From a virus, in the IMG/VR virus record IMGVR_UViG_3300032224_000723, positions 92,994 to 156,993 of that record: a stretch of 64,000 bases of DNA, one strand, 5' to 3'. Below, one piece after another: positions 7,249 to 60,070 of the stretch. Numbering within the stretch: the stretch's first letter is position 1; each line of letters begins with the position of its first letter. The notes beneath the pieces were generated by a model. That model searched no databases, was not told where the DNA came from, and saw only the letters and a list, made by a program, of their open reading frames with translations. Made by a program: the position numbers and the translations under genes.

Positions 7249-8109
7249 ATGAAAACATATTTAGACGCAATGCAAGAAGTGCTGGCCAAAGGCACGGTTA
7301 CTGAAGACAGAACTGGTGTTGGTACTATTAGTTATTTTGGTATGCAACAACGCTATGACCTTAGTAAGGGATTTCCTGCGGTAACAACAAAGAAACTAGC
7401 ATGGAAAAGTGTTGTGTCAGAATTACTATGGTTTATTGAGGGATCCGGCGACGAACGTAGACTACGTGAAATATTACATGGTAGCAGAGACTCTGAAAAA
7501 ACCACTATCTGGACCGCTAATGCTGAAGCAGACTACTGGAAACCTAAAGCTAAGTTTCCAGGAGACTTGGGTCGTGTTTACGGAGTACAGTGGAGACACT
7601 GGCGCCCAGGTAACGAGGAAGTTGATCAATTATTAGACCTAATCAACGGAATCAAAGCAGATCCACACGGACGACGACATATATTAACAGCGTGGAACCC
7701 AGGAGAGTTAAAATCTATGACCCTGCCACCGTGTCATTGCTTTGCCCAGTTTTATGTGCAACACAGATCAGGTGCAGAACGCGATGCACTGAGTTGCCAA
7801 ATGTATCAACGTAGTTGCGACATGTTTCTTGGAGTCCCATTCAACATTGCAAGCTACAGTCTATTAACCCACATGATTGCACAAGTCTGTGACTTAGACG
7901 TAGGCGAGTTCGTTCACGTTCTTGGCGACGCCCATATATACTTGAATCATGTAGAGCAGGTAAATGAACAATTAAGACGTGAACCCTTGCCTGCTCCGCA
8001 ACTATGGCTGAATCCTGACATTAAGGATATTACTAAGTTTACTATGTCCGATATTCGACTAGAGAATTATGTTAGTCACAATGCTATTCGAGCAGAGATG
8101 GCAGTATGA
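7249..8109 (+). CDS. thyA: thymidylate synthase (ThyA type)
   Basis: DRTGVGT, ELLWF, LPPCH, YQRSCD, PFNIASY, DAHIY. Confidence 0.97.
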   Translation: MKTYLDAMQEVLAKGTVTEDRTGVGTISYFGMQQRYDLSKGFPAVTTKKLAWKSVVSELLWFIEGSGDERRLREILHGSRDSEKTTIWTANAEADYWKPKAKFPGDLGRVYGVQWRHWRPGNEEVDQLLDLINGIKADPHGRRHILTAWNPGELKSMTLPPCHCFAQFYVQHRSGAERDALSCQMYQRSCDMFLGVPFNIASYSLLTHMIAQVCDLDVGEFVHVLGDAHIYLNHVEQVNEQLRREPLPAPQLWLNPDIKDITKFTMSDIRLENYVSHNAIRAEMAV

Positions 8110-9617
8110 CTTTTAATCAAAAAATTCTATGCGTCGGAAATGAAACAGAAGATACTGACATAAAAGTCAATCAACTATCTCAGGATCATAACACTGTTAA
8201 TCACGGTGTCATAACTGATACAGTGGTTGTCCCAGTACACCCAGGATATTATCATACTACATTGGCAGACATCCAACCTGGTGGCATTGCACACATAGCT
8301 AAAAACTTCGACGAAATCATAATGTTGGATCAATCACCAGAATCGTATCCTCATTGGAAATCGTTTGTTGGTACTTTTAGGTTAATGTACGATCTAGAAC
8401 AAACTGGAAACAAAGTTACATATAGAAACAATGAAGGTAATAAAGTTATTTCGTATTGGCATGACTTATTAAGAGAAAATAAAAGTGTTTGCTTTTATCC
8501 ATTCTTAGGACTAATAGATAATCTTACATCTGCAGGAGTATGTCCTAAAAACTTTGACCCGTTTACAGACATAAACAGTATACATGATTGGCAAGTTGAT
8601 GCCAAATATAATGTTATACGTAATAAAATGTTACGAGGAGAATTAGTCAATGAATGGTGTGAAGATTGCTACAGTCAAGAAAGTTTAGGTCAAGAAAGCA
8701 CAAGACAATTCGAAACACTTGAGTGGATGTCAAGATTAAATTTTAAATCAATTAACGATCTTGCTGACGTAGAATCACCTGCATACTATGAAATTCGCCC
8801 CAACAACAAATGCAATGTCATGTGCAGAACTTGTGACAACGCTCGCAGTCACTTAATTGAAAAAGAATGGAAAACTATTAATATTCCATTACTGCATTAT
8901 AAAGACGGAAATATAAAATTTGAGCACGTAGATTTTAACACAGTTAAAAGAATTTATGTTGGTGGGGGCGAACCAACAGTAATGGCAGAATTTTATGATT
9001 TCCTAACTAAGTGTATCAAACAAAACCGCACTGATTTTGAACTTGTAATTGGTACAAATGGTATGAAGTTCAGTGATAAAATTATGGGACTCTTTAGTCA
9101 TTTCAGTGATGTTTGTTTTTCTGTTAGTTTTGATGGCTATAAAAAAGTAGGCGACTATATTCGTTGGGGCACTGATTTTGACACAGTTGTTAAGAATTCG
9201 CACATGCTGTTGGCACAAGGACATAAAGTATCGCTACAAACTGTGTTTTCCATTTACAATTCAACTCGTATGCATGAGATTTTTGAATTTTACGATAGAG
9301 AATTTCCCACTTCAAGTCTACTAGTACAGTACGCTGGATTTGAGGAAGACATAATGAATCCATATAACAATCCTTGTCGAGAAATGGTAATAGAATCCAT
9401 GTATAAATGTATGCAAACAAAAGTCTATTACTCCAATGGCAGATCATGCAAAACACAAGTGGATGCTATGTTGGATTGGTATGAAAACAACTATCAATTT
9501 GATGTCAATAAATTAAAAAAGTTTTTTGAGTTTAATGATAAAATTGATCGTCAAAGAAATAGTCTACTAGGTAATTACATACCCGAGCTTGAACAAGCAA
9601 GACATTTAATTAAATGA
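8106..9617 (+). CDS. radical SAM protein with N-terminal extension and pre-core Cys domain
   Basis: CFYPF...WCEDCY, then CNVMCRTC, GGGEP, TNG, SFDG, YIRWG. Confidence 0.88.
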   Translation: MTFNQKILCVGNETEDTDIKVNQLSQDHNTVNHGVITDTVVVPVHPGYYHTTLADIQPGGIAHIAKNFDEIIMLDQSPESYPHWKSFVGTFRLMYDLEQTGNKVTYRNNEGNKVISYWHDLLRENKSVCFYPFLGLIDNLTSAGVCPKNFDPFTDINSIHDWQVDAKYNVIRNKMLRGELVNEWCEDCYSQESLGQESTRQFETLEWMSRLNFKSINDLADVESPAYYEIRPNNKCNVMCRTCDNARSHLIEKEWKTINIPLLHYKDGNIKFEHVDFNTVKRIYVGGGEPTVMAEFYDFLTKCIKQNRTDFELVIGTNGMKFSDKIMGLFSHFSDVCFSVSFDGYKKVGDYIRWGTDFDTVVKNSHMLLAQGHKVSLQTVFSIYNSTRMHEIFEFYDREFPTSSLLVQYAGFEEDIMNPYNNPCREMVIESMYKCMQTKVYYSNGRSCKTQVDAMLDWYENNYQFDVNKLKKFFEFNDKIDRQRNSLLGNYIPELEQARHLIK

Positions 9618-9868
9618 AATTATTTGAAACAATGGTACTGCACGAATTTAATATGGGCGATGTAGAAGATCCGTATTTGTATGCGGCATTTCCTATTGGC
9701 GACTGGCAAAAGACAGAACAAGGTCAGTGGGTCATGGACAATGTTATCGGTGAGCCAACTTTTCACTGCATGCCAGATCCGCATCAATATGGGTACCGTG
9801 TAGTTATTACTGGAGAGCTATCTCCAAAAAATCAAACTTACTATAATTTAAAATGGGGCATTAAATGA
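9614..9868 (+). CDS. hypothetical protein, FxLKW-like C-terminus
   Basis: DVEDPYLYAAFPI...QWVMDN...TYYNLKWG. Confidence 0.75.
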   Translation: MKLFETMVLHEFNMGDVEDPYLYAAFPIGDWQKTEQGQWVMDNVIGEPTFHCMPDPHQYGYRVVITGELSPKNQTYYNLKWGIK

Positions 9869-10839
9869 AATTTTTAGTAACTGGCGGTGCAGGCTTTATT
9901 GGCCACAACGTAGTTAGACAATTAGAGCAACAAGGGCACGAATGCTTTGTATTAGATTGCATAACTAATTATGGGTTTGTGCCACAAGACGAGTTAACAT
10001 ATCTAGCACGTGAACGTAAGCAACGTATGAAAGCTAATGTAGCACATATAGATCTACGTGATACTGAGGCTGTTATTAATTGGTTTAAAACTTTTAGTTT
10101 TAGAGCAGATGCCGTAATTCACCTTGCTAGTTTTCCTAGACAAAAAGTTGTAAGTCAAAATCCTGTTATGGCGTCAGAAGTTATGAGCACAGGACTAGTT
10201 AACTTGTTGGAACTTACTCGTCAACTTAAAATTCCTAAGTTTGTTTATATCAGCAGTAGCATGGTCTACGGAGATTTTGACAATGATGTCACAGAGAGTA
10301 GTCCGTGTAAGCCGCAAGGACAATACGGTATTATGAAATATATGGGAGAGAAACTTGTTGAAGATTATACTCGCCGTGGTTGTTTTAGCCACGTTATTAT
10401 CCGCCCCAGTGCTGTTTATGGCGAATACGACGTCGAAGACCGCGTCGTGTCCAAATTCATGCTCGGAGCAATGCGTGGTGAAACATTAAAGATTAAAGGT
10501 GCCAATGAAGTTCTGGACTTTACATACGTAGAAGATACTGCACAAGGTATTGTGTTGGCTGCAACTAAAACAGAAGCTGACAATAAAATCTATAACATCA
10601 CAAGAGCAGATACAAAACTATACACATTGTTAGATGCCGCAAATATTGCATTAAGCATTGCAGGCAAAGGCAGCATAGTTATACAAGACAAAGATGCCGA
10701 CTTTCCCAGTCGCGGAAGATTAAGCATTGATAGGGCTGTTGCTGATTTAGGATACAAGCCCACTGTCAGCGTTGAAGAAGGTTTTAAACGCTATTACGAA
10801 TGGTTTAAAAAGAGCGCATTTTGGCAGCAACGAATGTAA
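9865..10839 (+). CDS. NAD-dependent NDP-sugar epimerase/dehydratase
   Basis: TGGAGFIG, ISSSMVYG, YGIMK (YxxxK), DFTYVED. Confidence 0.93.
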   Translation: MKFLVTGGAGFIGHNVVRQLEQQGHECFVLDCITNYGFVPQDELTYLARERKQRMKANVAHIDLRDTEAVINWFKTFSFRADAVIHLASFPRQKVVSQNPVMASEVMSTGLVNLLELTRQLKIPKFVYISSSMVYGDFDNDVTESSPCKPQGQYGIMKYMGEKLVEDYTRRGCFSHVIIRPSAVYGEYDVEDRVVSKFMLGAMRGETLKIKGANEVLDFTYVEDTAQGIVLAATKTEADNKIYNITRADTKLYTLLDAANIALSIAGKGSIVIQDKDADFPSRGRLSIDRAVADLGYKPTVSVEEGFKRYYEWFKKSAFWQQRM

Positions 10840-11930
10840 TTCCTTTCTTTGGTGTTAATCGCCAATATCAAAACTTACGTGAAGAACTATTAGAAGTAAT
10901 AGATCAAGTATACAGTACTGGCCAAGTTCTAGACGGTAATTACACTAAAGAATTTGAAAGGCAAATTGCTGCCAGATGCCATAGACGTTATGCTGTGGCT
11001 GTGGGCAGTTGCACTCAAGCATTGATATTTGCCCAGCAAGTATTGTTCCAAGAACCCACAAAAATTCTAATACCCACTGTTAGTTTTGTTGCCACTATCA
11101 ACAGTGTGTTACTAAATGGCAATACTCCTGTGTTTTGTGATGTAGATGATCAAGCACTGATGAATTTAGAAAGCGTGGACTATGCTATCAAAGGATCAGG
11201 TGTTGACGGTATCATGTATGCTAACTTGTTTGGCAATACTGTGGACTACGATAGGTTTACCATGACTGCGGGATTCTTTAACAGTGATTTAAAAGTAATT
11301 GAAGATGCCGCTCAAAGTTTTGGTGCTAGCTACAAAGGTCAACCCAGTGGCAGTTTAGGTGACGTCAGTGTATTAAGTTTTGATCCCACTAAAAATTTAA
11401 ACAACTACGGATCGGGTGGCATGGTTTTAGTAGATGATTTGCCCACTGCTAAATTGTTGCGTGACTTACGTGACAATGGCAAAGAACTAAATCACGACAA
11501 TCCTGGTACTAACAGTAAGATGAGCGAAGCAGATTGTGCTCAAATGTTGGTTAAGTTAAAACATTTTGATGCTTGGCAGCGGCGCAGAACTGAAATTGCA
11601 GAATACTATAACGCAGAGCTGTCTAATTACGTAGATACTCCAAAAACTACAACTGGCACGGTACATGCGTGGAGCAAGTATGTGATTAAAACTGCAGATA
11701 GATCTGCCCTTAAAGAACAATTAAGCAAACAAGGCATTGAAACAAAAGTAAACTATCACACACCATTGTATGATCTGCAGGTAGGATATTCTTACATTAA
11801 CTATGCCATGGACTTGTATAGAGAAGCCAGCGCATTTTGTGTTGAGTGTTTGTCATTGCCTATCTATCCCGAGATGACTGACACGGAAGTAGAACGTGTA
11901 GTTGATGCGATTATTTCGTATACCGCTTAA
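10821..11930 (+). CDS. DegT/DnrJ/EryC1/StrS PLP-dependent sugar aminotransferase
   Basis: EDAAQSFG, SFDPTKNL (PLP lysine), LSLPIYP; TTG start uncertain. Confidence 0.93.
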   Translation: MAATNVIPFFGVNRQYQNLREELLEVIDQVYSTGQVLDGNYTKEFERQIAARCHRRYAVAVGSCTQALIFAQQVLFQEPTKILIPTVSFVATINSVLLNGNTPVFCDVDDQALMNLESVDYAIKGSGVDGIMYANLFGNTVDYDRFTMTAGFFNSDLKVIEDAAQSFGASYKGQPSGSLGDVSVLSFDPTKNLNNYGSGGMVLVDDLPTAKLLRDLRDNGKELNHDNPGTNSKMSEADCAQMLVKLKHFDAWQRRRTEIAEYYNAELSNYVDTPKTTTGTVHAWSKYVIKTADRSALKEQLSKQGIETKVNYHTPLYDLQVGYSYINYAMDLYREASAFCVECLSLPIYPEMTDTEVERVVDAIISYTA

Positions 11931-13542
11931 AGTATTCCTGTAGCCAAGCCCATTCAAAAGTTAACATCAACGCATCATAGTCTCCGTTAACTGACTCATA
12001 ATACTCCACAGCATCTGCGGCTCCACGCAAACACCATTCAGCATAATCACCTTGAGCTTTGGTTAACCAAGTCTTAAGTCTATATTCTGTTTCTACATTA
12101 GGTTCAGTAACACTAAAATGTTTTAACTTAACGACTTCACGAAACGCAGTACGCCAAGTCATCCATGCACTTTGATTGAAGTGTGCAATGCCGCTAAGAA
12201 TAGGCACTACTTCATGTGCTTTGCTTAATGTAAAGTCTAATCCACTATCGATAGTTTCTAATACCAATCTCTTGTTATATGCAATCATAGCTTGATGTCC
12301 GTAGACTAATCCATTCACGGGATTCTTAGCATGGAAGATATAGTGTTTGGGTTCTTGGAAATAGTCTGGTTGCCAGTGCCAAGGAAAACTCCCACCCAAG
12401 ACTTCCAATTTGGCAAACACAGTTAAAAACCATGGAGTAGTACTAGCTTCGGCTGCTGCCTTGTAAGCATTAGCACGACCATTGACTCCGCGTATCCACT
12501 TAACATCTCTGTTGCTTTGGTATTCAGTGTTCTCAAACCATTTTTGTTCGTCAGGTTCTCCGTTGCTGATGTAGATAATATCCAGCTCTTTTTCAGTGAA
12601 ATGTTGCTGTTCTTGGCTCTTAACGTAGGGATAATCGTATACTTGTGACTGCAAATGTGCCTTAATATCACGGGGTACTACACAGACAGCGTGACTACGT
12701 GTAAATGTCTCTACAGACCTGTCTTTTTCACTCCAAAGACAGGGTTGGTAATAAACAGTTAAATCAGACTGATTGGTAAACAGCGCATACGGGCCAGTAA
12801 ATTCGAATTTTTTAATTTCATCAACTAAGTTATCCGAATCATACTCACAGCGTGGCATGGAATGTCTCTCAACTCGCATGCGGTCACAGTAGTTGATTAC
12901 ATTAAACCAATCCAACAACTCTAGTTCTGCCATTTGACGTTTAAATGATTCCACATGAATGTAAAACGTATCTCCACGTTTTTGATTGCCGCTGGGAAAC
13001 ACATGAACCATTTCTTCTGTCCACTGGGCAGGATGCCAGGTAAAATCAAATGCCGCATAATCACATAGACTACTAATGATCCATACGTACTCTGTGGCGG
13101 CAAGATTTATTATGCGTTTGAATACGTTTAAGTGACTGTCAACATATCTAGTGGATTTTATATTGGACCAAGATTCTCTAAGTAATGCTAGATCAACTTG
13201 GCTTCCAGTATTCATAAAGTCCATGTAGAATATGTCTGTGGCTTGTGCTCTATTTACAATATCCTGTGCTTCAGTGTGCCAATGCCATTGATGTTCTTTA
13301 GTATGTTTAGGAACAAAATAAGTGCCACCATTATCTTGCCATTGACTGGCCCAAATATGTGTGTGCTCTGCTTCCCACGGCACAGGAACAAAGTCGAAGT
13401 CAAAGTCTGTGTAATCGTTTAAGCCGTTAACAAACCAACAGAACTTAGTGCGGCTCTGTGACTGTGCATCTACTAGGTCTCGAGCTGGACGTTCAAATGC
13501 AAATAAGTTGGGTTTTGGTCCTGTATAGAATACGTCAAACAT
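11911..13542 (-). CDS. glycosyltransferase-like protein built of repeated degenerate GT-A-like units
   Basis: C-terminal domain aligns with 27497-28423 (DIIYISNGEP, GVNG...AYKAAA, NGLVYG, WRTAFREVVKL); internal FDFxxxPxxW repeats. Confidence 0.6.
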   Translation of the reverse strand: MFDVFYTGPKPNLFAFERPARDLVDAQSQSRTKFCWFVNGLNDYTDFDFDFVPVPWEAEHTHIWASQWQDNGGTYFVPKHTKEHQWHWHTEAQDIVNRAQATDIFYMDFMNTGSQVDLALLRESWSNIKSTRYVDSHLNVFKRIINLAATEYVWIISSLCDYAAFDFTWHPAQWTEEMVHVFPSGNQKRGDTFYIHVESFKRQMAELELLDWFNVINYCDRMRVERHSMPRCEYDSDNLVDEIKKFEFTGPYALFTNQSDLTVYYQPCLWSEKDRSVETFTRSHAVCVVPRDIKAHLQSQVYDYPYVKSQEQQHFTEKELDIIYISNGEPDEQKWFENTEYQSNRDVKWIRGVNGRANAYKAAAEASTTPWFLTVFAKLEVLGGSFPWHWQPDYFQEPKHYIFHAKNPVNGLVYGHQAMIAYNKRLVLETIDSGLDFTLSKAHEVVPILSGIAHFNQSAWMTWRTAFREVVKLKHFSVTEPNVETEYRLKTWLTKAQGDYAEWCLRGAADAVEYYESVNGDYDALMLTFEWAWLQEYFKRYTK

Positions 13543-13987
13543 CTACTTGTTTTATATCAATGTTGCACTTTTTAAGAAAGTCTACTCCCGCCATGTCCCG
13601 ATAACTATTGCGATAGTATACGCTAGATATACCGCTTTGGTATATAAGTTTGGCACAATCCAAACAAGGAGCGTGAGTAATAAAAATACTAGCATCACTA
13701 CCGCTTTGGCTTGATTTGGCCAGCTTTGCAATCGCATTGGATTCAGCATGTAATACCTCTTTTCTTGTTACTAATTCTTCTATCTTTGTTTGGGGGTGTC
13801 TAAAGACGTATTCACAATTATTATCCCAACCACTGGGCATACCATTATAACCAATGCTAATGATTGTATCATCTTTAACTATAATAGCACCTACATGTAA
13901 ACGTGTTGCTGTACTACATTCAGCAAATATCTCCGCTGTTTTCATGTATGCTTTAATGTGTTTTTCTTTTATGACCAATTTGTCCAT
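13535..13987 (-). CDS. dCMP deaminase
   Basis: IGYNG, HAESNAI, PCLDCAK; exact start uncertain. Confidence 0.92.
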   Translation of the reverse strand: MDKLVIKEKHIKAYMKTAEIFAECSTATRLHVGAIIVKDDTIISIGYNGMPSGWDNNCEYVFRHPQTKIEELVTRKEVLHAESNAIAKLAKSSQSGSDASIFITHAPCLDCAKLIYQSGISSVYYRNSYRDMAGVDFLKKCNIDIKQVDV

Positions 13988-14631
13988 TTATCTGTTAGTT
14001 GATGAAATTTTGATAGATCTAGGTGTTTATCACCAGGCATATAATTATTAATCATTTCAACAAGTTGGTTTGCTAGTTCTTGATTGTTGTCTATGCTTAA
14101 ATGATTTTCCCTAGAGTCATGGAACAAAGCAAATTCTTTAGCATTTATTTCATTTAAACTTATAGATGTCAAACTAGGCCAAACATTAATTCCCGCCAAC
14201 GCAGATCTTTGACTCCATGTCCACGGAAAACAATGTAAGTTTACTATCTTTGTGTGTGCCCACCTAACGGTAATTTCTTCAAACCATTTTTTATGTGCCC
14301 AATGTACAAAATCACTGTCGTGTATATATTTGAAATAAAGTGCGACGGCAAGTTCTATTTCATTATTTTTATTCAATTGAGAATGATTAATCTTACCAAT
14401 TGTTTTATTACTAGTCGGAATTCTGTCAGAGTTAGTATGTGCAAATATCACTGCTTCACAGTTTTCAATATCAGCCTCACTAACTGAATTTAAAAAACAT
14501 TTTACAGCCCACCAAGGTTGACCACCGCCGCCATAACAGATTAAATTTAAATTTAATTGTTTAGCTACCATAGTTGGCCAAAATTGATAGTAAGTTGAGA
14601 AACTGTCACCTAATACAATTAAATTTTTCAT
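13969..14631 (-). CDS. SGNH/GDSL-like hydrolase or acyltransferase
   Basis: N-terminal VLGDSF, block II-like GGGG, C-terminal NHLS; AT-rich. Confidence 0.65.
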   Translation of the reverse strand: MKNLIVLGDSFSTYYQFWPTMVAKQLNLNLICYGGGGQPWWAVKCFLNSVSEADIENCEAVIFAHTNSDRIPTSNKTIGKINHSQLNKNNEIELAVALYFKYIHDSDFVHWAHKKWFEEITVRWAHTKIVNLHCFPWTWSQRSALAGINVWPSLTSISLNEINAKEFALFHDSRENHLSIDNNQELANQLVEMINNYMPGDKHLDLSKFHQLTDKWTNWS

Positions 14632-16154: not shown

Positions 16155-16252
16155 TTATAGATAAATGGATCTCGTTTACGTAGTTCTTTTAGTTTTTTAC
16201 GATATCGAATTTCTAATCGAATTCTGTTCCAAATGTTTCTTAACCAGTTCAT
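16151..16252 (-). CDS. unannotated 33-aa basic peptide ending DPFIYK
   Basis: MNWLRNIWNRIRLEIRYRKKLKELRKRDPFIYK; AAGGA SD; stop overlaps the carbamoyltransferase start (ATGA). Confidence 0.75.
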   Translation of the reverse strand: MNWLRNIWNRIRLEIRYRKKLKELRKRDPFIYK

Positions 16253-16257
16253 TGATT

Positions 16258-19163: not shown

Positions 19164-19167
19164 TTGC

Positions 19168-20229: not shown

Positions 20230-21035
20230 TCAAATTCCAAACTATCAAATTCTAATTCTTTAATATTTAACACCACATGTAGATCATCTAGATTAGTAAC
20301 TTTACCAACAACAGGATATCCTGTGTAATGCAATATTTTTTCTGTCCCATGTAATTCAACAAACCCAGGATCGTGTTTTAAAAAGAAATCTAAAAGTTCA
20401 TTGTGTTGGGTGAATGTACCGTAATTAGTTTGTGCTATATTGATACCTGGTTTAACCATGTCATGAAATTTACAAGTCTGTGTTATGTTAACCCCATCTT
20501 GTTCTTGAAAAATTTGTAATGGGCCGTGCCCCACAAAAGGATTTTGTAATTTAACATCCCCGATATTTAAATCATTTTTAAATTTAAAATCTAGGGGTAG
20601 ACTAAATCCTTCGTCGTTGAACCATTCTATTTGTAACCATGATCCTCTAGTAGATTGAATTCCGTTTTGAACTAGGTGTAAACAGTAATGCAACTCATGT
20701 ACGAGATAGTCATGCTTTGCAGGGATATCGTCAAAACCATAGCCGACTAATGTTTCTACACTTTTGTGTAATATCGGTGCAATATCATCATCAAAACCTG
20801 TATGTAAATCCCACAGAGGGGATTCGAACTCCCATGTCCACTTGAATGCTTTTTTGGCCTTAACGATTAATTCTTTCATATACTTGTTAGTGTATTTTAG
20901 TGGGTCTCTGAATACAGGCGGGCTATGTGAATAATTTTCCTCAATTAATTTAAAATAATTATTTCCGACTTCTGAGTCTTCTATTTCTAATTTTAATGTT
21001 GGAGCATTTCGAAATTGAACTAAAATTCTACTCAT
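20226..21035 (-). CDS. hypothetical protein, paralog of 16258-17385
   Basis: ILHKSVE, ELHYCLHLVQ, VGHGPLQIF, TGYPVVGKV. Confidence 0.75.
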   Translation of the reverse strand: MSRILVQFRNAPTLKLEIEDSEVGNNYFKLIEENYSHSPPVFRDPLKYTNKYMKELIVKAKKAFKWTWEFESPLWDLHTGFDDDIAPILHKSVETLVGYGFDDIPAKHDYLVHELHYCLHLVQNGIQSTRGSWLQIEWFNDEGFSLPLDFKFKNDLNIGDVKLQNPFVGHGPLQIFQEQDGVNITQTCKFHDMVKPGINIAQTNYGTFTQHNELLDFFLKHDPGFVELHGTEKILHYTGYPVVGKVTNLDDLHVVLNIKELEFDSLEFE

Positions 21036-23581: not shown

Positions 23582-24957
23582 AATGTATTGTACCAGTTTG
23601 CGAGCGCAGGAAATGTTTCTGTAAAGTTTTTACCACGACGTTGATCATATTGCATGTAGAAGTTTTTAAAGTCACGTTGTAGCACAATTTGCGACATTGC
23701 TTCTTTGTGTGCTTCACTGACTTCACGAATATAGTCCAACAATCTTGTTAATTGATTCCATTCGTACTCATGCATTTCTGAGCCGTGCCTATAACTGTCA
23801 GCAAAGTCATTCAATTTGTTGTAATACATTGATCGGATATCTTCAGGAAATACAGTCAGTGATTGAAAACTAGGAAAGCGTAATATATTTAATGAAAAAT
23901 TAATTGCATCTTTTCCGTATTCACGTTTCCAATTCATAACCATTTCTAGGAAACTGTCCAGACTATCGAGACACAAAGCATTAATGGTACACATGACATG
24001 AAGCCCGCAAAATTTTCCGCTGTCCAGTAATCGTTCTACATTGTTGGCCCAGTCGTCGAATACAAGCCCGTCTCGAATATATTCTGCTTGTAGACTCATT
24101 GATTCGTTACTGGTGTACAAATCAACTTCAACACCATCAACTGCTGCCAACAATCTATCAATATCTACGTCTGTGCCTAGATTACTGTTAATGGCTAGTC
24201 GCGTCGTCGACTTGCCTTTATTGTTCTTAAACCACTCAATGAGGTTCCACGTGTGGGCGGACATGAGAGGTTCACCTCCTGTGATTCTAAGTTCTTTAAG
24301 GGTTCTATGGAGGTCTGATTCCCACCATTTGAAGAATGCTTCCACATACGGATTAGTCTCACTGAATTTATAAAGTTGACTGCTATCATGAGTGTGAGTA
24401 AAATGGTTCCTACCGTCACTAACCAATCCTGTGTAGGATCCATTTTTTCTGATGTCATTAACCCAGGTACTACTAAATGCAGGGTTACAATAAGAACAAG
24501 CGAACTGGCAAGTGCGGTCAAAAGCAATTTCAAGAGTTTGAAGGTCGATGTCTGTCGTGGGGTCTGATTTGAATGCATGGTCTAAGTCCTCATCTGAATA
24601 TATTACTGTTTTGTATACACGATCGCTAATAGGCACTGGCACATCTACACCAGTATATTTTGGATCTTTGTACATATCTTCAATCTTCCAGCAGTATTCA
24701 CAACCACTGGGACGTTCTCCTGCTTGCATTTGACTACGTTCAAATTTCTTTTTAGTAGTGTTATGCAGAGACTTGGGATTAAATTTAATTGCTTCAACAT
24801 CAACTGCATGTGGCAATGGATGATGGCAACTGGTTGTTTGCCCGCTGCCTAACCATATAGTGGCATTGTACCATTTTGCTCCGCAGAAACTTGCCGACTT
24901 AATGTCAATGACTCTGCGTTTGTATTCTAAATCTGTTTCGTTGGGTAACCTAGCCAT
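23578..24957 (-). CDS. radical SAM protein (CxAKW/SCxHP subtype)
   Basis: CGAKW, SCHHP, CEYCW; CQFACSYC, GGEP, YIRDG. Confidence 0.9.
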   Translation of the reverse strand: MARLPNETDLEYKRRVIDIKSASFCGAKWYNATIWLGSGQTTSCHHPLPHAVDVEAIKFNPKSLHNTTKKKFERSQMQAGERPSGCEYCWKIEDMYKDPKYTGVDVPVPISDRVYKTVIYSDEDLDHAFKSDPTTDIDLQTLEIAFDRTCQFACSYCNPAFSSTWVNDIRKNGSYTGLVSDGRNHFTHTHDSSQLYKFSETNPYVEAFFKWWESDLHRTLKELRITGGEPLMSAHTWNLIEWFKNNKGKSTTRLAINSNLGTDVDIDRLLAAVDGVEVDLYTSNESMSLQAEYIRDGLVFDDWANNVERLLDSGKFCGLHVMCTINALCLDSLDSFLEMVMNWKREYGKDAINFSLNILRFPSFQSLTVFPEDIRSMYYNKLNDFADSYRHGSEMHEYEWNQLTRLLDYIREVSEAHKEAMSQIVLQRDFKNFYMQYDQRRGKNFTETFPALANWYNTL

Positions 24958-26125
24958 TCACATGCTCCGACAATTTTGATAATGTTGTTTTCCAATTAAT
25001 GTTTCTTAGCGAATCTATTTTTGTTAAATAATCTCTCCAGTCGTCACCACTTGTTATTCTTGCAGTTTCTAATTTAGAAATAATAGAATTTTTAATGTAA
25101 GCATAGTCATCCGAGATTGTTTGTAGATGATCTATAGCAGGTTGTTTTAATTCTTGGTCAATTGACTCTAAAGATAAAACATTCCCTCCGTAACTTTGGT
25201 CGCCCGCAAATGTTATGTATATCTCAATTGGATCTGTATTAGGTAATTCTGAGAAATGCGTGTTTTTCCAATCAATTATATCTTTTATATAAAACATATT
25301 AACCTTACTAACTGTTACCCCTAATTGTAACCACATATTAGGAATCACCGAGTTTAAATTTCTAATGTTAAACATATTTTCTTGTACTTGAGACCATTTT
25401 GCCGGATATCTAATATATTCAAATTGATTACCTATTGCATCTATACTAAAATATATTTTTACTAATTTCGTTTTCTGCCATAGTTCTACGGCTTCATCTG
25501 TAGGAAATACTGTGCCATTTGTATTATAACTCACCGTCACTTTACTTAGGTCACAACCTTGATGTTCCATCTCTTTTAAAACATTGACATGATCGTCTGT
25601 TAATAACGGTTCACCTCCTTGAAAATGCAGTAGTTGAATTTTATTCAATGGCAAAGACTTGTATATTAAATTACCATTTCCAGACACTTTTACTTCACCA
25701 CCTGTTATAGGATATCCCAGTTTTTTATAATCAGGCTTCCATAACGAACTGTATCTAGGGCCGCAAGTAACACATTTTAAATTACAAACATTTTCACAAT
25801 TATAAGAAAGACTTATTAATTCAACAGTATCATCTATGGTTATTTTATTTTGTTCAAATACCTTTTGTTGTCCTATTCTGTAGCTTTGTGTATTATGTTT
25901 TTCATGTATTAAACATCTATTACATTCTGGCACAGTTTCAATTGAATTTCTTACATAATTTAAATAATCATTGTTATAGAAATCCACTACATCATAGGCA
26001 TTATTACTGAATACTTGATCACAACACATAGCAACAAGCGCAGATTGTTTATCAACTTTTTCAATATACAGACCTTTTTTATATAAAGGACAATCAATTT
26101 TTGTTTCGTTATGTTGTTTTAGCAT
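24950..26125 (-). CDS. radical SAM protein with N-terminal Cys domain
   Basis: MCC, CNRC; CNLKCVTC, GGEP, YNTNG, FSIDA, YIRYP; ATG 26125 preferred; very AT-rich. Confidence 0.88.
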   Translation of the reverse strand: MLKQHNETKIDCPLYKKGLYIEKVDKQSALVAMCCDQVFSNNAYDVVDFYNNDYLNYVRNSIETVPECNRCLIHEKHNTQSYRIGQQKVFEQNKITIDDTVELISLSYNCENVCNLKCVTCGPRYSSLWKPDYKKLGYPITGGEVKVSGNGNLIYKSLPLNKIQLLHFQGGEPLLTDDHVNVLKEMEHQGCDLSKVTVSYNTNGTVFPTDEAVELWQKTKLVKIYFSIDAIGNQFEYIRYPAKWSQVQENMFNIRNLNSVIPNMWLQLGVTVSKVNMFYIKDIIDWKNTHFSELPNTDPIEIYITFAGDQSYGGNVLSLESIDQELKQPAIDHLQTISDDYAYIKNSIISKLETARITSGDDWRDYLTKIDSLRNINWKTTLSKLSEHVNG

Positions 26126-27503
26126 GATACTCACATTCTTTCCAAAAATCAATCATCTCTGGAAAGGTTCTTATAAAGCCAGTTCCCCTGCGCTTATCGT
26201 GTTCATTAAAGAACTTATAGAAATTAGCTTTTTGCATTTTAACATACTCTGGGTCCAAATTGCAACCTTCACGCATATAATCAATCACACGTTGTAGGCG
26301 TTGTGGTTCATAATCTTTAAATCCTTTAAAAGGCTTGTCTTCTGTTTCCAATTTACTAACCATAAACGCCCATGTTTCTTCTAATCGATCCACATAACTT
26401 TCAGGTAACAACTGAACACTTTGCCATTCTGGATTACGAAGTATGGGAGTATCAAACCAAACACGTTGATATGTTTTGCTGTATATTTGTCTAAGTCCAT
26501 GTATGCAATTAATCAAATCGTGAAAACCTGTGACGTTCAAATTGTTCATGGTAATGATAAACGTCAAACTACTTCTATTAGGTACTTCATTTAAGAAACG
26601 ATTAACATTTTCCCAAAGACGTTCAAAGTTTAAACCGTCTCTTGCATATTCTGCTTTAAAGAATGTAGCATCTACACTAACATACTGCATAAAATGTTCC
26701 AAGTACTTAGGTTCGTTTGTGGTCAATTTTTTTACACAATCTAAATATTTTTCAAACAACTCAGGCTCAACACTAAAATTGCTAGTAACGTTTAGATGTA
26801 ACTTAGGACTAGGATTGGCCAATACATAATCAAATACACGATATGTATTTTTATCCATCAACGGTTCTCCGCCTGTCATCCTAAAATGTTCTAAGTTAGG
26901 ATATAATGTAGGCCACCATTCCCAAAATGCTTCTACATAGGGATTATACTCACGGGCAGGTATGAGGCGCCTGCGGCCAACAAAATGATCAGGAGCATTG
27001 TGAGGCACCAAAGTAGGATATGCACCAAGTCTAGCAACTTCATCGGCCCATGAGCTGCTAAACTGTGGACTGCAATAGCTACACCGCAGATTGCAAGCGT
27101 GATTGAAATTAACTTCAACATAACTAGGAATAACATTGTCTTCGAGTCCTGTACTATTTTTTATATTTTCAAAATCCACTGCGGCCCAAGGCTCACCGCT
27201 ACGATAGTGACGGTCGCTTAGGTTACCTAAATCTTCTTGTGTCCAACAATAATTACATTCTTGTGGACGTTCGTTTTTTAACATCAACACACGTTGCTGT
27301 TTCTTATGCTCAGTGTTATGTAAGGCTGCAGGAGTTAGTTTAATTGCATCAGCGTCAATTTGATGTAATGGAGGATGATAGCAACTGTTGTTTAGTCCTG
27401 TGGGTAAGTGTAGGCTTACCTGTTTCCATTTAGCCAAGCAAAGCGCGGGACCCAACTTAGATTTAGCATCTTCTGCGTCTGTTAGAAATACGCTTTTTAC
27501 CAT
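26109..27503 (-). CDS. radical SAM protein (CxAKW/SCxHP subtype)
   Basis: CLAKW, SCYHP, CNYCW; CNLRCSYC, GGEP, YARDG. Confidence 0.9.
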   Translation of the reverse strand: MVKSVFLTDAEDAKSKLGPALCLAKWKQVSLHLPTGLNNSCYHPPLHQIDADAIKLTPAALHNTEHKKQQRVLMLKNERPQECNYCWTQEDLGNLSDRHYRSGEPWAAVDFENIKNSTGLEDNVIPSYVEVNFNHACNLRCSYCSPQFSSSWADEVARLGAYPTLVPHNAPDHFVGRRRLIPAREYNPYVEAFWEWWPTLYPNLEHFRMTGGEPLMDKNTYRVFDYVLANPSPKLHLNVTSNFSVEPELFEKYLDCVKKLTTNEPKYLEHFMQYVSVDATFFKAEYARDGLNFERLWENVNRFLNEVPNRSSLTFIITMNNLNVTGFHDLINCIHGLRQIYSKTYQRVWFDTPILRNPEWQSVQLLPESYVDRLEETWAFMVSKLETEDKPFKGFKDYEPQRLQRVIDYMREGCNLDPEYVKMQKANFYKFFNEHDKRRGTGFIRTFPEMIDFWKECEYHAKTT

Positions 27504-28423
27504 CCTTCAGCCTTACGAATAATTTCCATTTCTGACACTGTGGTGCCTAAATTCTTCTGTACTTTACTATAGTGATGTTTAAAGAAACGACTTTGCTCCG
27601 CTGTCATATCTACTATGGGCAATGCTAGCCTTTGTTGTAATGTTTGTCCTAAACTTACACAAGCAGATTCAGTGTCTCGTTGGAATGAACTCCATAATGA
27701 TGCCAATTGATCAAAGTCTTGCACTAATCGATAATCCCATTCACGTAGCATTGTAAGATATGTCCCTAGCCTTGCGCCATATATGGCCCAGAATCCGTTG
27801 TCAACATCCATGCCTACACTTTGCCATATACACAAGTGATCGTAGTTTCTAGCATGTACTTTTTGTTCAAATTCTTGCAGGCTAGGTTTCTTGCCTCGGT
27901 CCAAGCACATCTTAACACCTTCGCGGAATCCTGCTCTCCATGCCTGAAAGGGTGTGGCATTGGGATAAGTTGTGCTGTAACAATCATGCATAGGAACGTA
28001 TAATGGATCAAAGCAAAACTCAACCACAGTTTCATCTCTACCATCTGTGTTTTCATGTGTACGCATGTTGTTAACAAAGTCTTTGGTCCAGCAACTAAGT
28101 CCACCGTTGCCGTACATTAATCCATTAATGTGGTTACGTGCTTTCCAACGGAACACACAATCTTTGTTATTGTCATTTAATTTTAATTGTAGATTAAAAA
28201 ACTCAGGGTCAGGTATGTTGTCACCATCAATTAATACAAACCTATCTGTGTCACTGGCTGCTGCCGCGGCTTTGTGTGCGGCATCACTGCCTTTAACACC
28301 ATCTACACGTTTGGCCCATGGAACCATATTTTGAATCTTAATCCAAAATTCTTCCTTTTTAGGTTCGTCATAAGTTAAAAATATGCAGTCAAGATCTGCA
28401 ATGTCAATTAGTTCTTCTGTCAT
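27497..28423 (-). CDS. GT-A-fold glycosyltransferase-like protein
   Basis: DCIFLTYDEP...AHKAAA...FVLIDGD (DxD after a beta strand), AWRAGFREGVK. Confidence 0.65.
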   Translation of the reverse strand: MTEELIDIADLDCIFLTYDEPKKEEFWIKIQNMVPWAKRVDGVKGSDAAHKAAAAASDTDRFVLIDGDNIPDPEFFNLQLKLNDNNKDCVFRWKARNHINGLMYGNGGLSCWTKDFVNNMRTHENTDGRDETVVEFCFDPLYVPMHDCYSTTYPNATPFQAWRAGFREGVKMCLDRGKKPSLQEFEQKVHARNYDHLCIWQSVGMDVDNGFWAIYGARLGTYLTMLREWDYRLVQDFDQLASLWSSFQRDTESACVSLGQTLQQRLALPIVDMTAEQSRFFKHHYSKVQKNLGTTVSEMEIIRKAEGW

Positions 28424-28757
28424 AATATTCTATATCTGGATATGTTTCATTTTCTTCGAGTAGCAATGCCGCATTATTTTTAACAACTCGGTAACCTTTA
28501 TTACTTTTAATTAGACGTGAAACAAGTCCGTTATTTTGTACAATTTTTTCTAATACACCATTAACTACATGATACCTATAGTACATATCATATGTTTCTT
28601 TATCGACCACAACATATTGGGTCGATTCTGGATGTTGTACCATAGTACACAAATAAATGTCACCCAATTCATTATAATGAAGACGATACTCTATGGGTTC
28701 ATCCTCTGTTACAATCATTGAATTGAGTGCTTTAAGTAATTCCGATTCGCTGTTCAT
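28404..28757 (-). CDS. hypothetical protein
   Basis: 117-aa ORF overlapping both neighbours. Confidence 0.7.
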   Translation of the reverse strand: MNSESELLKALNSMIVTEDEPIEYRLHYNELGDIYLCTMVQHPESTQYVVVDKETYDMYYRYHVVNGVLEKIVQNNGLVSRLIKSNKGYRVVKNNAALLLEENETYPDIEYYDRRTN

Positions 28758-29592
28758 AGTATTTAATTATTTCATCTGTGGCAAAATTTTTATCAAAATA
28801 ATGCACTGGGTAGTATTGATTTAAATTGTTAACCCTAATAATATCACCGTCAAATTCCCCAATAACTGAATCAGCCCATGATCTATTTTCATCCAGCCCG
28901 TTTATGCTAGATTTCATATGTACAAAATTGATAAAATCTGCACTGGGAATCGTGCAATGTTCTCTGCCAATGACTTCAGTGACTATTGCGTACAATACAT
29001 CAGTGCTGGGTTTATCTTCTCTACAGTTCTTTAAAATTTGATCTTTTATTTCTAGCCAATTCAATGTTAATTGTTTTGCAAGCACAAAAAAATCTACCGC
29101 TGTTTTACTATATCTAAAGTACATTAATCCATTGTAGACATCAGGTAAATTGTTGTCATCAAACAACTGCCTATATGTTCTAACATTGGACATTTTTCCA
29201 AGATAATTTTTACAGCCCGTACTTAGTACAATATCTTTTAATCTAAATGTATTCCACCAATGATCAATACTTCTACCAAACAACAAATCACTTTCCAACT
29301 TAATTGTTTCTTTAAAAGGTGTTAACCAAAATACCTGCCATTCATTCGATAACTTCCAGTTGCTGTCCGGATCATTATAATCATCAGTTAGTTCTATCAC
29401 ATAGTCAAACACTTGCCTATGTTGATCTGTTACTAGTTGTGCTGTTGATTTGTCTACGATAACTGCATACTCGGCTGAAGGTTGTGTTGATTTTATGTTC
29501 ATTGCCTGCAGGTATGCAAGTTTGAGATAGTCCACAGATTCTGTGTTTTGTGCAAAGGTTACAAAACCTCGTTGTGATTTATGCTGACTCAT
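28732..29592 (-). CDS. GT8/GT71-like glycosyltransferase paralog (ESD in place of DxD)
   Basis: GFVTFAQN...YLKLA, TPFKETIKLESD, HYFDK; ATG 29592. Confidence 0.6.
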   Translation of the reverse strand: MSQHKSQRGFVTFAQNTESVDYLKLAYLQAMNIKSTQPSAEYAVIVDKSTAQLVTDQHRQVFDYVIELTDDYNDPDSNWKLSNEWQVFWLTPFKETIKLESDLLFGRSIDHWWNTFRLKDIVLSTGCKNYLGKMSNVRTYRQLFDDNNLPDVYNGLMYFRYSKTAVDFFVLAKQLTLNWLEIKDQILKNCREDKPSTDVLYAIVTEVIGREHCTIPSADFINFVHMKSSINGLDENRSWADSVIGEFDGDIIRVNNLNQYYPVHYFDKNFATDEIIKYYEQRIGIT

Positions 29593-30403
29593 TACAAAAC
29601 CCATCAACAAAATATTCAAAGTCTCTGCTAGATAAAAACTTTTTATCCATTATGTGTATGTTTTGTTTAGCAACTACATCTGCAGATTCTTTATGTCTTA
29701 GGATAATAAAATTATTTTTAATTTCAATTGATTCAATCCCTTGATCGACGGTGAGCATGGACCATGGGATACCCCTATGCTCGTTTAGATCATATCCATT
29801 TAAAATTAAATTGGCCATAGCAAATGCATGATCATTTCTATATGACCCCACACAATTAAATAATATAGAGTAATAAAGATAATTCTGTTGAATTCTACCA
29901 ATTAAATCAAAGTATTGTTTAGATAGTTCAGATTTGTTAAACAGAACCACAGTCGCCCATACAAAGGGTAGACCTAGTGTACCCATGATTTGATACATTT
30001 CTTCTTTTGGTCTATGACTATTGTGCATTAATCTGTAATCAAATTGTTGATCCAATAGATTTAATAAAGAATTATCCAGTACCAAATAGTCGCAGTCAAG
30101 TAAGATAGTAGTGTCGTATGGACTTAGCTCATATGCAAGGTACCTATCAAAATTACGCCACTCAACTAGTTCTCCACTGGAGCTGTTTCTAAGATTCCCT
30201 GTTTGACTATCAACTTTAATCACACGGTCATAATTAAATTTTGGGTCTGCGTTGATATCTGTTATTAATGTTATTGGCAGTTTTAAATTAGCATCAATTA
30301 GTCTACTAGATTGATCTGCTATCTTTACATAATTTACTGTTGTCGAGTTAAATGCAAATACAACTACACCTTTAGATTTTTCTAATTCTTTTGAGTTCGT
30401 CAT
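29579..30403 (-). CDS. GT8/GT71-like glycosyltransferase
   Basis: GVVVFAFN...YVKIA, LITD, SPYDTTILLDCD (DxD), RNDHAF, HIMDK. Confidence 0.68.
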   Translation of the reverse strand: MTNSKELEKSKGVVVFAFNSTTVNYVKIADQSSRLIDANLKLPITLITDINADPKFNYDRVIKVDSQTGNLRNSSSGELVEWRNFDRYLAYELSPYDTTILLDCDYLVLDNSLLNLLDQQFDYRLMHNSHRPKEEMYQIMGTLGLPFVWATVVLFNKSELSKQYFDLIGRIQQNYLYYSILFNCVGSYRNDHAFAMANLILNGYDLNEHRGIPWSMLTVDQGIESIEIKNNFIILRHKESADVVAKQNIHIMDKKFLSSRDFEYFVDGFCNESA

Positions 30404-30689
30404 GTTGTTGATGCCAAGTGTTCATAACTTTTTGATAATGCTGTTGGGCTGTTACTAAAAATATTTGCCGATCGATTTCTATGGGATTCTGATAAACATC
30501 TTCAAGATATAATATATCTAATGGCCATGTTGCAACAAAGGCCAATAGTTCTGGAGAAATTTTGAAAAGACCATTGTTGTATGGTAAATGCAGATCTGTT
30601 TGTATTTTTTCTCTGAGCAATCTTTTATTTGATTGGTAATCAGTTGCTTGCTTGACTTGAGCCACTAAGTTTTTTAGATCAGTATTCAT
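30372..30689 (-). CDS. hypothetical protein, first gene of the enzyme operon
   Basis: ATG 30689 directly after a sigma70-type promoter. Confidence 0.75.
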   Translation of the reverse strand: MNTDLKNLVAQVKQATDYQSNKRLLREKIQTDLHLPYNNGLFKISPELLAFVATWPLDILYLEDVYQNPIEIDRQIFLVTAQQHYQKVMNTWHQQHDELKRIRKI

Positions 30690-30695
30690 AGACAA

Positions 30696-30724
30696 ATAAT
30701 AACATCTAATAGATCAAAAGTCAA
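30696..30724 (-). promoter_or_regulatory. sigma70-type promoter heading the enzyme operon (leaderless)
   Basis: Minus strand TTGACT (30724-30719), 17 nt, TATTAT (30701-30696) with TG extension, 6 nt, ATG. Confidence 0.65.
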
Positions 30725-30742
30725 TTGATTTAATCTACCAAA

Positions 30743-31681: not shown

Positions 31682-31690
31682 TTGGCCCCT

Positions 31691-60044: not shown

Positions 60045-60070
60045 GTACTAACTGTTTAAGGAGAACTAAA

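Follow-up and report, generated by a model that had tools for sequence, protein, structure and literature searches.

A conserved phage island of radical SAM, glycosyltransferase-like and carbamoyltransferase genes with a 33-codon gene: a candidate pathway for cytoplasmic glycan tailoring

The stretch of DNA analysed here (the window) is the final 64 kb of a 157-kb IMG/VR virus record, IMGVR_UViG_3300032224_000723, for which CheckV gives a completeness of 45%. Our subject is an island of about 22 kb within it, conserved in related phages and predicted to encode soluble enzymes, eight radical S-adenosylmethionine (SAM) proteins among them, together with a 33-residue peptide with an invariant tail. 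Close relatives of the record are 354–357 kb long and 98–100% complete, and the source is thus a jumbo phage. Its gene set is T4-like (dihydrofolate reductase (DHFR), thymidylate synthase (TS), deoxycytidylate (dCMP) deaminase, a baseplate-hub-like OB domain and fibre-like proteins), and the phage appears to belong to a T4-like freshwater jumbo lineage of about 350 kb, mostly from lake metagenomes.

Two sets of loci were used for comparison: 46 related IMG/VR loci, fetched through the core radical SAM gene rS3, and the best 80 of at least 370 viral contigs bearing the 33-codon gene (pep33), anchored on pep33. Orthologue counts and identities for individual genes are from the rS3-fetched loci unless stated otherwise. 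The features of the island are listed below. The family model NF033640 (N_Twi_rSAM, "twitch domain-containing radical SAM protein") has a curated cut-off of 170 bits, and the Pfam gathering cut-offs for the carbamoyltransferase are 24 (PF02543) and 27 (PF16861).

7249–8109, plus strand: TS (PF00303, 359 bits; NCBIfam equivalog NF002497, 363 bits, cut-off 327)
8106–9617, plus strand: rS0, N-terminal-twitch radical SAM protein with a 125-residue N-terminal extension (NF033640, 206 bits)
9614–9868, plus strand: U84, 84 residues, no Pfam or PHROG match
9865–10839, plus strand: extended short-chain dehydrogenase/reductase (SDR) of the nucleoside diphosphate (NDP)-sugar epimerase/dehydratase type (PF01370, 150 bits; PF16363, 121 bits)
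10821–11930, plus strand: DegT/DnrJ/EryC1-type sugar aminotransferase (PF01041, 268 bits over 346 residues)
11911–13542, minus strand: U543, last gene of the minus operon, with two N-terminal repeats and a GTa-related C-terminal domain
13535–13987, minus strand: dCMP/cytidylate deaminase (PF00383, 73 bits), inside the minus operon
13969–14631, minus strand: SGNH/GDSL-like esterase or acyltransferase, 220 residues
14631–16154, minus strand: NodU/CmcH/TobZ-type carbamoyltransferase, core (PF02543, 119 bits; PF16861, 164 bits)
16151–16252, minus strand: pep33, 33 codons, encoding the very basic peptide MNWLRNIWNRIRLEIRYRKKLKELRKRDPFIYK
16258–17385, minus strand: U375, core, in 44 loci; modelled as a cyclophilin-like β-barrel with a long helical insert
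17360–18658, minus strand: rS1, core radical SAM (NF033640, 291 bits), median identity 77% in 47 loci
18645–19163, minus strand: small 2-oxoglutarate (2OG)-Fe(II) oxygenase-like protein, accessory, 172 residues, with an HxD..H..RxS motif
19168–20229, minus strand: rSx, accessory radical SAM (PF04055, 38 bits; NF033640, 54 bits) with a Cys-rich N-terminal part, in 4 loci
20226–21035, minus strand: U269, accessory, no family match, a single orthologue (in locus L010)
21028–22251, minus strand: rS2, core radical SAM (NF033640, 354 bits), median identity 68% in 47 loci
22238–23581, minus strand: rS3, core radical SAM (NF033640, 402 bits, the best match to the family model in the set)
23578–24957, minus strand: rS4, core radical SAM (NF033640, 268 bits)
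24950–26152, minus strand: rS5, accessory radical SAM (NF033640, 203 bits), relatives at paralogue level only (median identity 27%)
26109–27503, minus strand: rS6, core radical SAM (NF033640, 312 bits), a paralogue of rS4 (29% identity)
27497–28423, minus strand: GTa, core, with an N-terminal domain of GT-A/nucleotide-diphospho-sugar transferase type
28404–28757, minus strand: U117, core, in 36 loci (median identity 39%), no family match
28732–29619, minus strand: GT8a, core, GT8 (glycogenin/lipopolysaccharide (LPS) glycosyltransferase)-like
29579–30403, minus strand: GT8b, core, a paralogue of GT8a with an invariant D103-x-D105 (alignment A4)
30372–30695, minus strand: U107, core, first gene of the minus operon, in 33 loci (median identity 64%)
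30696–30724, minus strand: predicted sigma-70-type promoter, TTGACT-17-TATTAT with an extended −10 (TG)

The original prediction, made from the sequence alone, described two convergent, tightly overlapped operons, and open reading frame (ORF) calling agrees: the plus operon runs from 7249 to 11930, the minus operon from 30695 to 11911, and their 3′ ends overlap by 20 bases. The plus-operon junctions from TS to DegT are −4, −4, −4 and −19 bases, the first being the overlap of the TS stop with the start of rS0. The minus operon holds 19 long ORFs, from U107 down to U543, and nearly all its junctions overlap. Its sole sizeable gap, of 103 bases, is occupied by pep33, and apart from this slot the island in the window has no intergenic promoter gaps. 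The dCMP deaminase, the 33-codon ORF, the TS/rS0 overlap, the coupling of TS to SDR and DegT, and the island promoter with its stem-loop are additions to that first description.

Across the 46 loci the order of genes is fixed. Starting from fibre-like genes described below, it runs F519 – F312 – U107 – GT8b – GT8a – U117 – GTa – rS6 – rS4 – rS3, and continues rS2 – rS1 – U375 – (SGNH copies) – carbamoyltransferase – (small cassettes) – dCMP deaminase – U543. Twelve core genes and pep33 keep this order in both the 46 rS3-fetched and the 80 pep33-anchored loci, so that the synteny check proposed at the outset finds the core genes co-conserved rather than scattered. Backbone orthologues are 40–77% identical, and the overlapping junctions are kept too. 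The junction between F312 and U107 is retained in every locus that reaches that far, U107 lying between the F312 gene and GT8b in all 33 loci where it is found, and the dCMP deaminase is at the same place in 16 loci. At the other end, the DegT gene occupies the same convergent end of the island, just past U543, in all four large relatives tested (59–62% identity), and the SDR adjoins TS in complete relatives (49–63% identity). In relatives TS is coupled directly to SDR, and two complete genomes (G001 and G002) have the order TS–SDR–DegT with 4-base overlaps and with no rS0 in between. rS0 and U84 are thus an insertion in this phage: rS0 is confined to it and its nearest kin, and U84 has no orthologue among the related loci.

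Between the backbone anchors, cassettes come and go at fixed junctions. In relatives they include extra radical SAM genes, some with the usual C-terminal SPASM domain, an NDP-sugar epimerase inside the run of radical SAM genes, and, beside the carbamoyltransferase, APS-kinase-like P-loop proteins and further SGNH/DUF6071-like genes. In the window the accessory genes, which few relatives carry, are rS5, rSx, the 2OG gene, U269 and the SGNH gene in its present form.

One further cassette family, of about 340 residues and paralogous, is present as 62 copies in 37 loci, with up to four per locus and no copy in the window. It is found among the radical SAM genes and also on the opposite strand before U543 (examples are L008:4599-5552, L003:18692-19822 on the minus strand, and L055:5016-6062), and has a conserved block, F.TEK..KP....PF..G...L...GF.TF. 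A GT10/fucosyltransferase-like identity was considered from the TEK motif in this block and was dropped, as neither Pfam (20 members) nor the PDB gave it support.

The cassettes bear on the claim that the genes form one pathway. For the twelve-gene core and pep33 the claim holds up; rS5, rSx, the 2OG gene, U269, the SGNH gene in this form, and the rS0–U84 insertion between TS and SDR fall outside it. At the extreme, the island could be a hyperplastic collection of independent mobile cassettes with unrelated targets, a view that would fit the gain and loss at many junctions, the paralogues of its radical SAM family scattered elsewhere in the genome, and the element at its start, which resembles the PeSL elements known from T4-type shuffling regions (see below). 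We consider it highly improbable, given that the core genes and pep33 have the same order and overlapping junctions in 46 and 80 loci at 40–77% identity, and that the island in the window has no intergenic promoter gap besides the pep33 slot.

The radical SAM proteins are the most numerous component. All eight of the CxxxCxxC proteins reported at 8106–30724 match Pfam Radical_SAM, and seven of them pass NF033640 (203–402 bits); the eighth (19168–20229), at 54 bits, falls outside the family and is a radical SAM protein of another kind. As in that family, a Cys-rich auxiliary domain lies N-terminal to the CxxxCxxC core: in five of the proteins a SPASM-like Pfam domain precedes the core, with matches at residues 8–107, and alignment A5 shows no variation at a CxxC pair (C104/C107) or at the core cysteines (C158/C162/C165). 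NF033640 is thus a catalogued family; what differs here is its expansion: the 157-kb record has 10 members that pass the cut-off, and each complete relative has 11–13. The eight are old paralogues, 20–30% identical among themselves. The core members, equally distant from each other, are 68–77% identical to their own orthologues, which argues that each has a conserved task of its own. Among isolates the family is rarely seen: 4 of 50,697 phage records have it, as against no plasmid out of 72,556. The Atlas clusters closest to it are all viral. In environmental DNA such phages are abundant, single core proteins having thousands of lake and marine metagenome relatives, many at about 70–95% identity: rS3 has more than 7,000 (the best 120 at 72–100%), and GTa at least 8,000. 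A megablast search of the whole region against the 50,697 phage records gave no match.

A ninth N-terminal-twitch radical SAM gene is present in the window at 60927–62351 (plus strand, 306 bits), on the far side of the baseplate/fibre module, between a 300-residue protein of no known family and a calcineurin-like phosphoesterase (60035–60937 and 62376–63401). In a cultured phage, Vibrio phage K566 (OZ196521.1, locus L002, about 255 kb), four adjoining genes of similar type at 161.5–168.3 kb are 21–27% identical to those of the island; no carbamoyltransferase or pep33 was found within the 31 kb of that genome that was examined.

The sugar-related enzymes vary in how clearly they can be assigned. 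The SDR, the DegT aminotransferase and the carbamoyltransferase are clear Pfam members (PF01370, PF01041, and PF02543 with PF16861), as originally proposed. None reaches the cut-off of a functionally defined subfamily: the SDR scores best against the RmlB equivalog (125 bits, cut-off 365), neither it nor the DegT protein reaches any NCBIfam equivalog cut-off, and the carbamoyltransferase, at 129 bits against the NodU equivalog NF041651 (cut-off 1000), is a member of the superfamily rather than a NodU orthologue. It is present in 40 of the 46 loci at 58–69% identity.

Four GT-A-like ORFs had been predicted, of which three (GT8a, GT8b and GTa) are credible as transferases and the fourth, U543, looks like a degenerate copy. 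A profile of GT8a relatives (A3) matches about 15 glycogenin chains weakly (E 0.03–1), glycogenin-1 aligning at E 0.03 over the N-terminal 110 residues as far as an E-S-D; GT8a also matches PHROG 1903 (E 1.5e-5) and has no Pfam match. GT8a and GT8b are clearly homologous (hhalign of A3 and A4, 97.9% probability, E 5e-13), with an invariant E109-x-D111 in GT8a at the site aligned with the DxD of GT8b, and GT8b has no PDB profile match. For GTa, the top Foldseek rows of a predicted structure (mean predicted confidence, pLDDT, 74) are GT2-type transferases, weakly (E 0.02–0.1), and VIA-align gives Z 6–8 over residues 5–148, a score reached by IspD-type nucleotidyltransferases as well. The sequence L64-I65-D66-G67-D68-N69 is invariant in alignment A2, right after a predicted strand at 61–66. 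U543 resembles GTa (BLASTP E 1.4e-4 over 187 residues) and has no DxD; its orthologues in relatives are 610–1071 residues long.

The SGNH assignment is borne out by a profile of relatives rather than by Pfam: profile A6 matches 4rsh in the PDB at E 1.7e-7, and more than 20 further SGNH chains. G8, S10 (the block I Ser) and H177 (the block V His) are invariant, most members having G-P-x-G-H-P in block V where the window protein has R-E-N-H, and the usual Asp of DxxH is not conserved. The family is paralogous: 45 of 54 loci have one to three members of it, placed on one side or the other of the carbamoyltransferase gene. The 2OG-Fe(II) oxygenase proposed from its motif, found in 4 loci only, has no match in Pfam, NCBIfam or PDB-profile searches; it is backed by the motif (in six sequences H97 is invariant, D99 is present in four, and there is an H at "FHGM" and an R-K-S anchor) and by its likeness to viral Atlas clusters in which 57–88% of members are PF13640 (feature score 0.95, TM 0.80).

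Searches of Pfam (with E relaxed to 10 as well), PHROGs and NCBIfam were uninformative for U84, U543, U375, U269, U117, U107, GT8b and F312, and PDB profile searches gave no match for U375, GTa, GT8b, the 340-residue cassette family or the 2OG protein. The U375 model (pLDDT 86) aligns with cyclophilins at VIA-align Z 8–9 over about 140 residues, barely above background, and has no Foldseek match. None of the island proteins has a hydrophobic stretch of membrane-helix strength, and Pfam scans of the island reveal no flippase, polymerase, ligase or lipid-carrier (undecaprenyl-phosphate) transferase. The chemistry would therefore be cytoplasmic, and an autonomous surface-polysaccharide pathway is unlikely.

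On the basis of these observations we hypothesise that the island encodes a pathway for making and tailoring a glycan in the cytoplasm, with a protein or peptide of the phage's own as its carrier, a reading we consider plausible, though short of probable. SDR and DegT pairs make NDP-4-amino-4,6-dideoxyhexoses, and the pair encoded here would convert an NDP-hexose from the host into an NDP-amino(deoxy)sugar. The GT8-like pair and the GT-A-like enzyme would put together a short glycan on an acceptor that is itself a protein or peptide encoded by the phage, much as the GT8 enzyme glycogenin glucosylates a tyrosine, and in relatives further transferase-like cassettes may join in this assembly. Each of the five core radical SAM proteins would then make one distinct radical edit (oxidation, epimerisation, deoxygenation, or C–C/C-methyl chemistry). 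NodU/TobZ enzymes O-carbamoylate sugars, and the carbamoyltransferase could likewise put a carbamoyl group on the glycan structure, while the SGNH paralogues could add or remove O-acyl groups. The accessory cassettes (radical SAM, 2OG and SGNH copies, P-loop kinase, epimerase) would give strain-to-strain variety in decoration, in the manner of serotype loci. Candidate acceptors are a virion protein encoded next door (F312 or fibre-like) and the pep33 peptide itself. Glycan building and remodelling, as first suggested, is still the best reading of the transferase-like families, SDR, DegT, epimerase cassette, carbamoyltransferase and SGNH proteins. What the sequences themselves show is the set of families, their linkage in a constant order, the coupling of adjoining genes, the lack of membrane segments and the selection on the peptide; each reaction, like the acceptor, is one that we infer.

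The most unexpected gene is pep33. Its TGA overlaps the ATG of the carbamoyltransferase (ATGA), and a Shine-Dalgarno-like AAGGA precedes it in most loci. In 51 loci there are 34 distinct DNA sequences, every one of 33 codons, with 12 invariant residues including E14, Y17, R18, L21, E23 and D28–K33, the last forming the tail DPFIYK. The codons of these residues vary freely (three Pro, three Ile and five Arg codons are used, for example). As the residues are fixed while synonymous codons drift, pep33 is selected as a protein, under strong purifying selection. A scan with the peptide alone found relatives in at least 370 IMG/VR viral contigs. Among the best 80 loci, rS1 lies upstream in 73 of 73. 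Downstream, 59 of 61 have the carbamoyltransferase, either as the very next gene or with one or two SGNH genes in between.

The sole pep33 relative found in a cultured phage is a weaker copy in Ralstonia phage RsoM2USA (MG752970.1), an unannotated micro-ORF of about 33–36 codons in the gp201/gp200 interval (L001:14041-14133, at about 125,894–125,986 of the record) that ends in DPFIYK. It is flanked by two SGNH-like genes (hhalign 98.7% and 99.1%) and has as neighbours a carbamoyltransferase (gp199, 45% identical to that of the island) and an rS4 orthologue (L001:11799-13139, 48% identical over its full length). RsoM2USA thus appears to define a minimal module of radical SAM, SGNH, peptide and carbamoyltransferase. 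Vibrio phage K566, marine virus AG-345-D19 and phage C48C1 showed no pep33-like tail in those parts of their sequences that were examined.

These findings raise the alternative that the peptide is the centre of the pathway: pep33 would be a ribosomally made scaffold or precursor, and the radical SAM proteins, the carbamoyltransferase and the SGNH proteins would act on E14, Y17 and DPFIYK. Sugars, if any, would go on the peptide, and the outcome would be either a peptide in modified form or a small molecule derived from one, as with pyrroloquinoline quinone (PQQ), with mycofactocin, whose core is glycosylated by a dedicated transferase, or with natural products made on scaffold peptides. The constant length and 12 invariant residues despite synonymous change, the presence in at least 370 contigs, the position locked between rS1/U375 and a unit of zero to two SGNH genes and the carbamoyltransferase, and the RsoM2USA mini-module all point this way. 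So do the weak secondary matches of the SPASM/twitch radical SAM proteins to peptide maturases in NCBIfam, the modelled cyclophilin-like fold of U375, which binds peptides in other proteins, and the resemblance of the accessory 2OG enzyme to prolyl-hydroxylase-type PF13640 proteins. HypF belongs to the same superfamily of carbamoyltransferases and has the C-terminal residue of HypE as its target; the carbamoyltransferase here, of the YrdC/Kae1-type superfamily, adjoins a peptide with an invariant C-terminal tail. As in PQQ and mycofactocin clusters, a short conserved peptide gene lies among radical SAM genes with auxiliary clusters. Unlike in these and other systems for RiPPs (peptides that ribosomes make and that are modified after translation), the auxiliary domain is N-terminal, and Pfam and NCBIfam detect no recognition-element domain, leader peptidase or exporter in the island, though divergent recognition elements can escape sequence models. 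Near-invariance would equally fit a small enzyme subunit or regulator, and the glycosyltransferase genes are 10 kb away, at the opposite end of the operon. A complex prediction for the carbamoyltransferase with pep33 (scores 0.00 and 0.00) counts neither for nor against binding. We judge a peptide-centred pathway unlikely, though with a real chance of being right, and give a slightly smaller chance to the specific form in which pep33, through Y17 or DPFIYK, is the scaffold for a glycosylated, carbamoylated and radical-SAM-edited product early in infection. Such a product would be a phage-encoded glycopeptide, or else a small molecule or cofactor derived from a peptide, and its makers would be widespread among the jumbo phages of aquatic habitats.

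The timing of expression also bears on the target. The predicted promoter lies in the 47-base gap (30696–30742) between F312a and U107, and TTGACA-N17-TATAAT is kept at the same spot in about 20 of 27 distinct upstream regions, in which the surrounding sequence is not conserved. In relatives (L003–L050) an inverted repeat often spans the −10 box, its letters changing while the pairing stays, and some loci have a GC-rich terminator hairpin just upstream of the promoter. PeSL elements are cassettes that join an early promoter with a stem-loop, from the hyperplastic regions of T4-type phages (Arbiol et al. 2010, PMC2839356). The element here is similar in having a near-consensus sigma-70 promoter between the upstream stop and U107 and a stem-loop over the −10, the commonest PeSL layout, and differs in what follows it, an operon of many genes spanning 19 kb and not one orphan gene (PMC2839356). 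The conserved promoter and stem-loop before U107 suggest that the island is its own transcription unit and not an extension of a late fibre operon, and its transcription is probably early rather than late. The T4 late-promoter word TATAAATA occurs twice in the 64-kb window, against about nine expected from shuffles, and the lineage may use another late-promoter consensus. One of these words stands before pep33; a late promoter there was considered and rejected, the word being present in only 2 of 96 distinct relatives and under-represented in the whole window.

An early-type promoter is also what would be expected if the enzymes remodelled the host envelope, acting as soluble proteins on the LPS core or a glycolipid at the cytoplasmic face, for example to exclude competing phages. 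The GT8 family is dominated by LPS core transferases, and the same idea has been proposed for the host recognition clusters of pelagimyophages, with their GT8 and radical SAM cassettes (PMC7029224). Against this, the island lacks membrane proteins, flippases, polymerases, ligases and undecaprenyl-phosphate transferases, there is hardly time in a short lytic cycle for the surface to turn over, and pep33 would be left unexplained. We therefore consider envelope remodelling improbable.

A second reading that would suit early expression is hypermodification of DNA or of the nucleotide pool, in which a base is decorated with a tailored sugar or a carbamoyl-containing group and so evades host nucleases. 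The dCMP deaminase gene lies within the operon, translation of SDR and DegT is coupled to that of TS and DHFR (the latter at 6727-7233 on the plus strand, part of the nucleotide-metabolism context), and relatives have P-loop kinase cassettes. The only TS-family gene, however, is a true thymidylate synthase by its equivalog cut-off, with no second copy in complete relatives; a TS-type dCMP/dUMP hydroxymethylase, the usual route to an attachment point, is thus missing, which lowers this reading. In addition, domains for DNA binding or base flipping were not detected, and to our knowledge the DNA glycosyltransferases of T4-type phages are GT-B enzymes, not GT8-like. DNA modification is in our view quite improbable.

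Several observations weigh against the proposal that a glycan is built on a phage-made protein or peptide. The glycosyltransferase assignments are weak profile and fold matches (E 0.02–0.03, Z 7–8), the island has no sugar nucleotidyltransferase, and the RsoM2USA minimal module has no recognisable glycosyltransferase nearby. Complete relatives have 6–8 further N_Twi paralogues scattered elsewhere, so that the family is not tied to the island alone, and the literature searched describes no reaction for N_Twi (NF033640) radical SAM proteins, which makes sugar editing a guess from context. The conserved early-type promoter, at times with a terminator, stands between the island and the fibre-like genes, whose adjacency may thus reflect only a hyperplastic insertion site, and the island is embedded in early-type nucleotide metabolism, with the dCMP deaminase inside it and TS and DHFR coupled to SDR and DegT. 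The original prediction named virion proteins as the most plausible target. Nothing beyond adjacency speaks for that ranking. The promoter and stem-loop separate the island from the fibre-like genes, and its far end lies among genes of early-type nucleotide metabolism. The conserved adjacency of F312 keeps virion proteins in play as a target, the intervening promoter and terminator weakening the link.

It was also stated at the outset that no characterised phage pathway has this enzyme set, and our literature searches agree: they found no phage radical SAM pathway of this kind, similar gene sets being mentioned in passing only. GT8 genes are noted, along with cassettes of radical SAM genes, in the host recognition clusters of pelagimyophages and cyanomyophages (Zaragoza-Solas et al. 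2020, PMC7029224), and one T4-like environmental genome has 12 radical SAM genes (Nishimura et al. 2017, PMC5332604). The island shares with these a hypervariable region beside the tail fibres of T4-type aquatic phages, with GT8, LPS-type sugar genes and radical SAM cassettes. It differs in belonging to a jumbo lineage of about 350 kb, mainly from lake metagenomes, and the remarks in those papers (PMC7029224, PMC5332604) are at the level of annotation, with no core set, peptide gene, promoter or link to a carbamoyltransferase.

Closer in chemistry are the known systems of virus-encoded virion glycosylation. A64R of the chlorovirus PBCV-1, the fibril sugar clusters of mimivirus (with a 4,6-dehydratase and a DegT-type aminotransferase), and the capsid and tail glycosylation of mycobacteriophages are examples. 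They resemble the proposed pathway in that soluble GT-A transferases, along with enzymes for amino sugars, act on virus proteins in the cytoplasm, and for GTa the top Foldseek rows include the structure of A64R (weak, E 0.02–0.1). We know of no radical SAM protein, carbamoyltransferase or conserved micro-peptide in any of these three, and virion glycosylation by the island is itself a hypothesis. We would class the island as a variant of the glycan and tailoring clusters that viruses encode; a peptide-scaffolded pathway would be new in kind.

If the product were identified, a chemistry could be given to an entire radical SAM family that has been catalogued but not studied, and to which at least 6% of a 350-kb genome is devoted. 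The product would also show what large aquatic phages decorate (the particle, DNA, the host, or a secreted or intracellular peptide), and explain the cassette-style diversification beside host-recognition genes. The 33-residue peptide with its invariant tail, and the mini-module in the cultured Ralstonia phage RsoM2USA, offer handles at the bench.

The genes upstream of the island are the following.

30743–32629, minus strand: F312a and F312b, tandem paralogues (72% identity) that always precede the island, presumed to be a fibre or receptor-binding component
32643–34202, minus strand: F519, fibre-like, with a weak C-terminal intramolecular-chaperone domain (PF11962, E 2e-4, below cut-off)

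That the island's neighbours are fibre genes is plausible. The claim that the minus operon starts next to fibre genes is right as to its adjacency to F312, but the fibre identity is weakly supported (PF11962 at E 2e-4, a Peptidase_G2 intramolecular-chaperone domain). F519 and F478 (35022–36458) are 41% identical over their C-terminal 120 residues, and F312a and F312b have no Pfam match. In relatives F312 is present as one or two copies of 36–56% identity, with a conserved C-terminal TWG.VT, and is more variable than the enzymes.

Further upstream of the fibre-like genes, a single ORF of 4,465 residues occupies 36507–49904 on the minus strand, its orthologues in complete relatives being 3,600–3,800 residues long and 38–40% identical. 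At the other side of the island, upstream of the DHFR–TS block, 1729–3033 on the plus strand encodes a protein with a DUF2201 metallopeptidase and a VWA-like domain (PF13203, 142 bits), which is 66–69% identical in complete relatives.

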